64,000 nucleotides of DNA from a virus (lineage: Duplodnaviria > Heunggongvirae > Uroviricota > Caudoviricetes), in the IMG/VR virus record IMGVR_UViG_3300035501_000524; one strand, written 5' to 3'. The notes beneath the pieces were generated by a model, which had not been told where the DNA came from, did no database searches, and was given only the letters and a program-made list of their open reading frames with translations. How positions within the stretch are numbered: the stretch's first letter is position 1; each line of letters starts with the position of its first letter. Below are positions 26,128 through 26,973 of the stretch, one piece after another. The position numbers were made by a program, and so were the translations under genes.

Positions 26128-26973
26128 CTACTCCTCTCCGATGTAAATGAGTTTGTCAACATATTCCCTATCTTCATTTTTTAAAATTGGCATATTCAAA
26201 TCCACTGTCCAACGAGATCTTTGCTCTAAAATGTGATTATTTTTAAATAAATAATAATCTTCTTTAATGCAACTACTTCCTCGTTTTTGATAAGCTGGAA
26301 AATCATTCCAATTAATCCCTTTTTGAGTCATAAGCATATCTTGAATATCATTACAAGACTTATCTTTTAACTCATAGTGACTAAAATAAGCCTGCCCCAC
26401 AGATTGAATAGAGTTTCTTGTAGCATCAAGCTGTCGCCAGTAAATTAAGTTAGTAACTTCTTCTTTTGGAATATTAAAACATCTTGCGTCAAACATAGCA
26501 GAATAAAATTTACTACTATATAAATCATACCAAGCTCTTTCTTCTTCATTTGTCATTGCAACTTTTGTATTATAATATAAATTTTCTGTTGCGTTTTCAA
26601 AGAATTTATTAAAATACATAGTTGCCATACTTGCAGAAATACTACAAATTTTCTGAACTTCATAATCAAACCAAGCTGATGTGTTAAAAGTCTGATAATC
26701 TACAAGAATTAAAGTAATTTCATCAGATTGAGTATATCCAAAAACACATCCTTGAATATTTTCACAAAGTTTCTGCGTAGTTCTTTGCATAGCATTTGTT
26801 AAAACTGGATCAAAAGGTTTCTTTAAGCCTTTCGTAAAAGTGTGAAAAGCTTTTCCATCAATCCTAATGGCTACTGGCATTCTGCGCATAAGCTTAGTCT
26901 TTGGAATATCTTCATAAAAAGTTTTCATTCTGGTACCTAATTCATCTCTAATTGCCATATTATTTCTCCTCAA
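26128..26973 (-). CDS. Thg1-like protein (tRNA-His guanylyltransferase / 3'-5' polymerase family)
   Basis: IRIDGKAFHTF and GYTQSDEITLIL blocks match the Thg1/TLP catalytic core (RxDGxxFHxF; SDE). Confidence 0.7.
   Translation of the reverse strand: MRRNNMAIRDELGTRMKTFYEDIPKTKLMRRMPVAIRIDGKAFHTFTKGLKKPFDPVLTNAMQRTTQKLCENIQGCVFGYTQSDEITLILVDYQTFNTSAWFDYEVQKICSISASMATMYFNKFFENATENLYYNTKVAMTNEEERAWYDLYSSKFYSAMFDARCFNIPKEEVTNLIYWRQLDATRNSIQSVGQAYFSHYELKDKSCNDIQDMLMTQKGINWNDFPAYQKRGSSCIKEDYYLFKNNHILEQRSRWTVDLNMPILKNEDREYVDKLIYIGEE

Follow-up and report, generated by a model that had tools for sequence, protein, structure and literature searches.

A predicted bacterial-type Thg1-like protein in a phage RNA-repair cassette, and a phage tRNA-His gene that encodes G-1

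According to PMC3701042, bacterial Thg1-like proteins (TLPs) carry out Watson-Crick-templated repair of 5'-truncated tRNAs of many identities in vitro, and occur in organisms that already encode G-1, the guanosine preceding position +1 of tRNA-His. Such proteins are also known from phages: Iyer et al. (2021) named phage Thg1 among RNA-repair components, and the literature we searched lists phage TLPs as tRNA-processing or RNA-repair genes. Here we analyse a TLP gene from a virus of the class Caudoviricetes (IMG/VR record IMGVR_UViG_3300035501_000524), together with the tRNA-His gene and the RNA-repair genes that accompany it on the same 64,000-nucleotide stretch of DNA, hereafter the window. 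A preliminary description of this DNA had joined TLP and tRNA-His into one obligatory module, in which the enzyme supplies a G-1 that the tRNA gene lacks. We find that the tRNA-His gene encodes G-1, and argue that the TLP probably serves a different end, the templated repair of 5'-truncated tRNAs, as one optional element in a phage cassette for RNA repair.

The TLP gene and its product

26128..26958, minus strand: coding sequence of the TLP, 276 aa, ATG start (matches in Pfam, PDB and PHROG, and a ribosome-binding site)

The minus-strand open reading frame (ORF) at 26128-26973 holds AIRIDGKAFHTF and GYTQSDE, the catalytic blocks that had been quoted for a Thg1-family protein, and the family assignment is borne out by matches to Pfam PF04446 (Thg1; 103.2 bits, E 1.3e-29, model positions 3-130 of 130, against a curated cut-off of 29.2 bits), to PDB 4KGK, the TLP of Bacillus thuringiensis (BtTLP; 1.1e-61, full length in two segments, with 48-50% identity over the aligned segments), and to phrog_4717, annotated 'tRNA-His guanylyltransferase' (1.3e-87). 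The match to Pfam Thg1C scores 18.6 bits, under the 26.3-bit threshold; the C-terminal Thg1 domain is present, with TLP residues 159-279 aligning to BtTLP 126-240 (1.9e-29). The preliminary description gave the range 26128-26973. The ORF does exist, but the coding sequence begins with the ATG at position 26958, which an AGGAG precedes by 9 nt. The earlier TTG (26973) falls within the upstream ORF, and public gene calls of identical proteins likewise give 276 aa.

Comparison with PDB sequences places human THG1 (3OTB) at 6e-6 and an archaeal TLP at 1.8e-11. In addition, the phage protein reads TRNSIQS where the Thg1 chain 5XOX reads HINNLYN, a stretch that we take to be a hallmark of Thg1. Because it is far closer to BtTLP, and because TRNSIQS stands in place of HINNLYN, the product of 26128-26958 is classified from its sequence as a bacterial-type TLP rather than a eukaryotic-type Thg1, which upholds the earlier assignment. 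It belongs to a family of two-metal, template-dependent 3'-5' RNA polymerases, and its own activity is predicted to be of this kind.

The catalytic site is intact. With residue roles mapped via the BtTLP alignment from the descriptions of BtTLP and Thg1 in PMC3701042, the metal carboxylates are D34, D79 and E80 (276-aa numbering; D30, D75 and E76 in BtTLP, D29, D76 and E77 in human THG1), the residues of the activation step are K47 and S78 (BtTLP K43 and S74; yeast (Sc) K44 and S75), and those of nucleotidyl transfer are R32, K103 and R159 (BtTLP R28, K99 and R131; Sc R27, K96 and R133), while E16 and R175 align with BtTLP E12 and R147. The carboxylates and lysines of Thg1 that the preliminary description had left to an alignment (D34, D79, E80, K47 and K103) are thus all present. 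Across 18 clade members (65-96% identity) the catalytic residues are invariant, except for K47, where 17 members have K or R.

Relative to BtTLP the protein carries an insertion of about 33 residues (121-153), which is found in all clade members and is hypervariable in sequence and length between invariant flanks; a further variable segment, at about 237-250, lies near the C-terminus. These segments could be a surface under diversifying selection or just an unconstrained loop. An AlphaFold2 model built from an 18-sequence alignment (pLDDT 53) was too poor for use, and nothing was concluded from it.

TLP genes are found in 162 deposited phage records, mostly annotated as such already, from phages of Bacillus, Prevotella (Lak), Caulobacter, Mycobacterium, Erwinia, Vibrio, Aeromonas, Fusobacterium and others. 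No deposited phage copy exceeds 57% identity to the window TLP; thousands of proteins 60-70% identical to it are encoded on metagenomic contigs of 100-280 kb.

An encoded G-1 in the phage tRNA-His gene

42421..42494, minus strand: tRNA-His(GUG) including the encoded G-1 (ARAGORN structure, register table with 7-bp acceptor stems, Rfam RF00005)

A tRNA-His gene with discriminator C73 is present on the minus strand, as had been described. Its Rfam RF00005 match (65.3 bits) aligns 42421-42493 with model positions 1-71, and in the ARAGORN structure +1 is G42493, paired with C42422, the discriminator C73 is 42421 and the anticodon GTG occupies positions 34-36. The 3' trailer is CUU, with no CCA encoded. 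In a register table of all 21 tRNAs of the window, positions -4 to -1 of tRNA-His read UUUG: position -1 is G42494, Watson-Crick complementary to C73, and U42495 is -2. The acceptor helix accordingly comprises 8 bp, from G42494:C42421 to U42487:A42428. An 8-bp acceptor helix is a hallmark of bacterial tRNA-His, and tRNA-His is the sole tRNA in the window with a G-1:C73 pair. The phage gene, in other words, encodes G-1 in the standard bacterial design.

The U that the preliminary description placed at -1 was wrong by one base, and the range that it gave for the gene, 42421-42495, actually spans U-2, G-1 and +1 to 73. The extra 5' nucleotide that it had itself named as evidence against its proposal is found encoded, that is, in genomic form. 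Since G-1 is encoded, RNase P should retain it, and the conclusion that G-1 must be added post-transcriptionally therefore does not hold: such addition is not obligatory. An obligatory addition would have been without viral precedent. A distance of 15.5 kb separates the TLP gene from tRNA-His, and the two belong to different transcription units. A PD-(D/E)XK endonuclease gene (42697-43116, minus strand) lies about 200 nt upstream of tRNA-His.

Phage tRNA-His genes that truly lack an encoded G-1 do exist, since a haphazard sample of 82 viral tRNA-His genes, 41 of them G-1/C73, contained 21 with U-1/C73. This form recurs in 371 deposited phage records, for the most part from T4-like phages that infect Escherichia, Klebsiella, Enterobacter and related hosts. 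Citrobacter phage Merlin provides an example (locus L205, NC_028857.1, 72801-72876; ...ATTGA-T/GTGGCCG...CGGTCAC/C/CCA, slashes marking the ends of the 7-bp stem and C73), and further U-1/C73 loci are L087, L293, L306-L316 and L338. The T4-like genera concerned do not figure in the ten groups that carry a TLP most often. How, and whether, such a tRNA-His is charged in T4-like phages of E. coli and Klebsiella is a question of its own, and the occurrence of U-1/C73 in many phages may come to outweigh the claim from which this analysis started.

Does the presence of a TLP track the absence of G-1? The relatives of the window suggest the reverse. A second TLP-bearing cassette contig (L213/L319, overlap verified) has a tRNA-His reading ...UUAU-G/GUGGGUA...UACUCAC/C/CUAA, so that G-1 is encoded in both of the two TLP-bearing cassette lineages whose tRNA-His could be reached. 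By contrast, U-1/C73 was found in seven related contigs whose cassette has no TLP, keeping in mind that contig matching used about 40 kb per contig and that a TLP may be remote from the cassette, as contig 135203 shows. A coherent module of TLP and G-1-less tRNA-His, as previously proposed, is contradicted by the encoded G-1, and the reversed association across relatives points in the same direction.

Other comparisons carried less information. In 80 related viral loci the 10 kb on either side of the TLP contained no tRNA-His, and any tRNA at all in only 7, but flanks of this length are too limited to tell much. When the TLP was compared by tblastn with 120 haphazardly chosen viral tRNA-His loci, themselves too short, one truncated match appeared. 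A search for close relatives of the window tRNA-His gave no match in viral contigs (the contig of one close relative stops short of the region), and blastn against deposited phages returned weak, unrelated matches only. In the tRNA-His genes of several related phages (loci L301, L302 and L323-L329) the G-1:C73 pair is kept and a U at +1 is mismatched with position 72 (U.U or U.C), which makes for an uncommon acceptor end.

The tRNA-His gene forms part of a larger array, which includes three weak Rfam tRNA matches not called by ARAGORN:

31873..47125, minus strand: array of 21 tRNA genes and 3 weak tRNA-like elements, upstream of the cassette
38904-38966, minus strand: 63-nt tRNA-like element without a proper anticodon arm (weak Rfam match)
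37304-37373, minus strand: probable tRNA-Pro(UGG) with a weak T-arm (weak Rfam match)
31952-32074, minus strand: 123-nt tRNA-Tyr(GUA)-like gene in which about 40 nt are inserted after the D-arm (weak Rfam match)

All 21 tRNA genes end without an encoded CCA, and the 64-kb window yielded no gene for a CCA-adding enzyme. In the 7-bp register none of the 21 tRNAs needs 5'-editing: the sole acceptor-stem mismatch is C1xA72 of the initiator-type tRNA-Met, a normal feature of bacterial initiator tRNA, and a role for the TLP in 5'-editing of the mitochondrial type was rejected on this ground. The tRNA-Ile(UAU) gene (39934-40022, minus strand) is 89 nt long, with a base-paired variable arm that is unusually long for an isoleucine tRNA.

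Proposed templated tRNA repair and the repair cassette

If the tRNA-His gene supplies its own G-1, why should the phage keep a TLP? On our analysis the enzyme would most likely serve, during infection, to restore acceptor stems of tRNAs from which one or a few 5' nucleotides have been lost, by making their 5' strand anew: in a first step a 5'-monophosphate would be activated with ATP or GTP, and in a second NTPs would be added with the 3' strand as template. It could act on host tRNAs as well as on the 21 or more that the phage itself encodes, and counter-defence would be the presumed purpose in vivo. Restoration of G-1 opposite C73 on tRNA-His would be one special case among these repairs, not an obligatory step of maturation.

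The company that the TLP gene keeps is consistent with such a role. Its placement among RNA-repair genes, as previously stated, is confirmed by co-directional genes for an RNA ligase, RNase T, an RlaP-like protein and phosphoesterases; all genes from about 12.6 to 31.3 kb lie on the minus strand. In the order of transcription, the genes and signals are:

29823..31337, minus strand: DUF2828/DUF7788 protein, the cassette anchor (phrog_850, 'RNA-binding protein', 1.6e-138)
27244..29688, minus strand: major-vault-protein-like (MVP-like) protein, 814 aa (Pfam MVP_shoulder 6e-21; PDB 7PKZ 6.5e-20)
27178..27206, minus strand: promoter-like TTGATT-N17-TATAAT upstream of orf63 and TLP (general phage promoter consensus)
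26960..27151, minus strand: orf63, first gene of the TLP transcription unit (ORF map)
26128..26958, minus strand: TLP, as above
25711..26124, minus strand: 137-aa predicted membrane protein, last gene of the TLP unit (phrog_3878)
25696..25723, minus strand: terminator-like 12-bp hairpin with T-run, closing the TLP unit
25178..25642, minus strand: HD-domain phosphohydrolase (profile matches)
24010..24798, minus strand: RlaP-like / Pol-beta-family nucleotidyltransferase (phrog_388)
23234..24010, minus strand: calcineurin-like metallophosphoesterase (phrog_1649)
21970..22773, minus strand: RNase T / DEDD 3'-5' exonuclease (profile match)
21536..21973, minus strand: cREC_REC (cyclic-phosphate-processing Rec) domain protein (Pfam PF20274)
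20106..21461, minus strand: ATP-dependent RNA ligase, DRB0094-like (phrog_968, 4e-60)
18940-19647, minus strand: GIY-YIG endonuclease (GIY-YIG/NUMOD, homing-type), interrupting the repair cluster
18162-18635, minus strand: YqeY
17089-17529, minus strand: NADAR
15962-16696, minus strand: phosphoesterase
14754-15281, minus strand: PNK-like P-loop kinase
14199-14753, minus strand: phosphoesterase
12652-14148, minus strand: SPFH/flotillin

To see how general this arrangement is we surveyed 60 DUF2828-anchored viral loci with at least 9 kb downstream, counting same-strand genes. RlaP-like genes are present in 39 of the 60, phosphoesterases in 36, MVP-like genes in 26 (following DUF2828 at the head of the cassette), RNA ligases in 25, RNase T in 21 and PNK-like kinases in 16. 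Ten loci have a TLP, in each case on the same strand and about 2 kb downstream of DUF2828, and 9 of these 10 cassettes (TLP identities 51-96%) also contain two or more of the RlaP, phosphoesterase, RNase T and ligase genes. A TLP-bearing contig from ENA (L211, 196 kb) runs DUF2828, two other genes, Thg1, one other gene, RlaP, Metallophos, RNase_T and RNA_ligase. Linkage of a similar kind is seen elsewhere: the order in Aeromonas phage phiA009 is TLP, phosphoesterase, Rnl1 and ATPase; in Fusobacterium phage FNU3 a prohibitin gene lies close to the TLP and an RNA ligase 12 kb off; and two loci of the TLP clade (L083 and L084) carry a full CCA-adding enzyme 2 kb from the TLP. The recurrent repair cassette is real, and the TLP is an optional component of it. 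Because independent lineages link the TLP with other end-healing genes, we regard it as a mobile accessory gene that has repeatedly settled among genes for RNA-end repair. Phage TLPs as such are already known; their placement in a cassette of DUF2828, MVP-like, RlaP, RNase T and ligase genes we have not met as described.

Several points weigh against the repair reading. In 79 of 80 TLP-anchored loci the neighbours differ from those in the window, the same surroundings being found only in a 96%-identical relative. When Pfam families were counted over 150 neighbour ORFs, drawn from about 25 dereplicated TLP-anchored loci, genes of replication and DNA modification prevailed; RNA_ligase, RlaP, Band_7, Metallophos, RtcB and a CCA-adding enzyme were in the minority. 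Most close TLP homologues thus lie outside repair cassettes, so that guilt by association is only moderately strong. Moreover, antiphage tRNases mostly cut anticodon loops, damage that is beyond a TLP to mend, and we know of no host defence that yields 5'-truncated tRNAs. Biochemical or genetic work on a phage TLP was not found in the literature searched. The phage protein is well conserved, and its position in the cassette gives a concrete setting for asking which 5'-end damage to tRNAs occurs during infection.

In most other members of the clade (TLP-anchored loci L003-L080) the TLP lies among replication genes, beside radical-SAM, PAPS-reductase and adenylosuccinate-synthetase-like genes, which may represent DNA base-modification pathways.

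Some further features of the window cassette deserve mention. The 7PKZ match of the MVP-like protein, a homologue of the major vault protein of eukaryotes, covers about 450 residues, and the protein has no PHROG family; orf63 is not conserved beside the TLP in other loci. The presence of cREC_REC, NADAR and YqeY with the ligase and phosphoesterases suggests a link to cyclic-phosphate or ADP-ribose processing. In the window the consensus of the promoter, TTGATTTTT-(AT-rich)-TATAAT (spacer of 17 nt), has 34 copies where 0.08 would be expected, 33 of them on the minus strand (for example at 27178-27206, 25670-25698 and 29735-29763). A promoter often follows directly upon a strong terminator hairpin, and the region is thus split into many small transcription units. 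As a sign of co-regulation between the TLP and the repair genes the motif was rejected: with 34 copies it is the general promoter of the phage.

Vault-protein homologues are a frequent member of the cassette, an observation that may also prove weightier than the original claim. It is tempting to think of a 'vault plus TROVE' pair, but this analogy for MVP-like and DUF2828 is unproven: when DUF2828 was examined for a TROVE/Ro-like relationship, it gave neither a PDB sequence match nor, even at E=10, a Pfam signal for TROVE or vWA, and its homologues are too alike for a far-reaching profile. The MVP-like genes of three huge-phage genomes do not adjoin cassette genes, and two preprints on bacterial and viral MVPs make no mention of a DUF2828 or repair-cassette context.

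Alternative roles and comparison with known systems

There are a number of scenarios besides general 5'-end repair that might explain the presence of a TLP. The one that survives best, although we consider it doubtful, is a safeguard specific to tRNA-His, in which the TLP mainly restores a lost G-1 on phage and host tRNA-His and so sustains histidine charging. Loss of G-1 could arise from mis-cleavage by RNase P at +1 of a CCA-less precursor, or from a host nuclease. The 3' CCA influences the choice of cleavage site by RNase P on tRNA-His precursors, and CCA is encoded neither in the window tRNA-His (CUU) nor in that of the second TLP-bearing lineage (CTAA); however, all 21 tRNAs of the window are without CCA, not tRNA-His alone. 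The G-1:C73 pair would offer a ready template and the family is universally annotated as tRNA-His guanylyltransferase, yet bacterial TLPs are not specific for tRNA-His in vitro, and linkage of TLP to tRNA-His within 10 kb was seen in none of the 80 loci. Nor do we know of any defence system that removes G-1.

A second scenario, which strikes us as unlikely, would make the TLP part of a phage ribonucleoprotein repair machine. The strongly conserved DUF2828 protein and the vault homologue would hold damaged tRNAs while the enzymes (RNase T, RlaP-like transferase, phosphoesterases, kinase, TLP and RNA ligase) trim, refill and reseal both ends, countering a defence that attacks acceptor stems or removes G-1.

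Quite unlikely, in our view, is a substrate other than tRNA. Imagine that the TLP extended or repaired the 5' end of another RNA, for instance a small RNA associated with the cassette or one of the tRNA-like elements, perhaps held by DUF2828 and the MVP-like protein. The gene does come after those for DUF2828, annotated as an RNA-binding protein, and the MVP-like protein, but several TLP-bearing cassettes have no MVP-like gene, L211 among them. The array offers three aberrant tRNA-like elements, yet no cognate RNA has been identified. Finally, although TLPs of Dictyostelium are reported to differ in biological function from one family member to another, the closest characterised homologue of the phage protein acts on tRNAs.

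The obligatory module with which the preliminary description had begun, a tRNA-His without encoded G-1 on which, once RNase P has acted, the TLP would have to place G-1 opposite C73, is now very improbable. C73 and a TLP are both present, templated addition of G-1 opposite C73 is within known TLP chemistry, and U-1/C73 tRNA-His genes do occur in other phages. But those genes lie in contigs whose cassettes lack a TLP and in mainly T4-like genera that rarely have one, whereas both TLP-bearing lineages encode G-1, in the window as G42494 paired with C73; the distance and separate transcription of the two genes likewise count against a module. As for a decaying or non-functional gene acquired from a host, its patchy distribution (10 of 60 cassettes) is all that could be adduced and is not specific, and an intact ORF with a ribosome-binding site and its own promoter, invariant catalytic residues and a clade of thousands at 60-70% identity leave that idea next to no credibility.

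How, then, does templated 5'-end repair in this phage compare with systems already described? The archaeal TLP (PDB 5AXK-5AXN) performs templated 3'-5' addition on tRNA, according to PMC4820378, which is the reaction that the preliminary description envisaged, but its sequence match to the phage protein is distant, and the G-1-less tRNA-His gene that goes with the archaeal reaction is not what the phage has. Eukaryotic Thg1 (human 3OTB, and yeast) shares superfamily, fold and two-metal chemistry, with a weak sequence match; it adds a non-templated G opposite A73, essential for tRNA-His identity, whereas the phage protein lacks HINNLYN and groups with TLPs, and the phage tRNA-His has C73 and an encoded G-1.

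As a phage-encoded means of mending damaged tRNAs against host defence, the heal-and-seal pair of T4, Pnkp and Rnl1, is a functional parallel: the window cassette has ligase, kinase-like and phosphoesterase genes, and the TLP of phiA009 lies near Rnl1. T4, however, mends breaks in the anticodon loop, whereas a TLP acts on the 5' ends of acceptor stems, and we know of no host nuclease that matches repair of the TLP type.

Nearer relatives are found in the phage family phrog_4717, with members in Bacillus phages BCP78 and TsarBomba, Fusobacterium phage FNU3, Aeromonas phage phiA009 and the jumbo phages XacN1 and 201phi2-1, from which the window TLP is set apart by its place in the DUF2828/MVP-like/RlaP/RNase T/ligase cassette. 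The closest parallel of all is BtTLP (PDB 4KGK/4KGM). The protein studied here differs in being phage-encoded, in its insertion of about 33 residues, in its position within a repair cassette and in having an activity that is predicted from sequence; the two are homologous over their full length and agree in the metal carboxylates as well as in the residues for activation and transfer, each occurs with a tRNA-His gene in which G-1 is already encoded, and for both the proposed role is repair of tRNA 5' ends.

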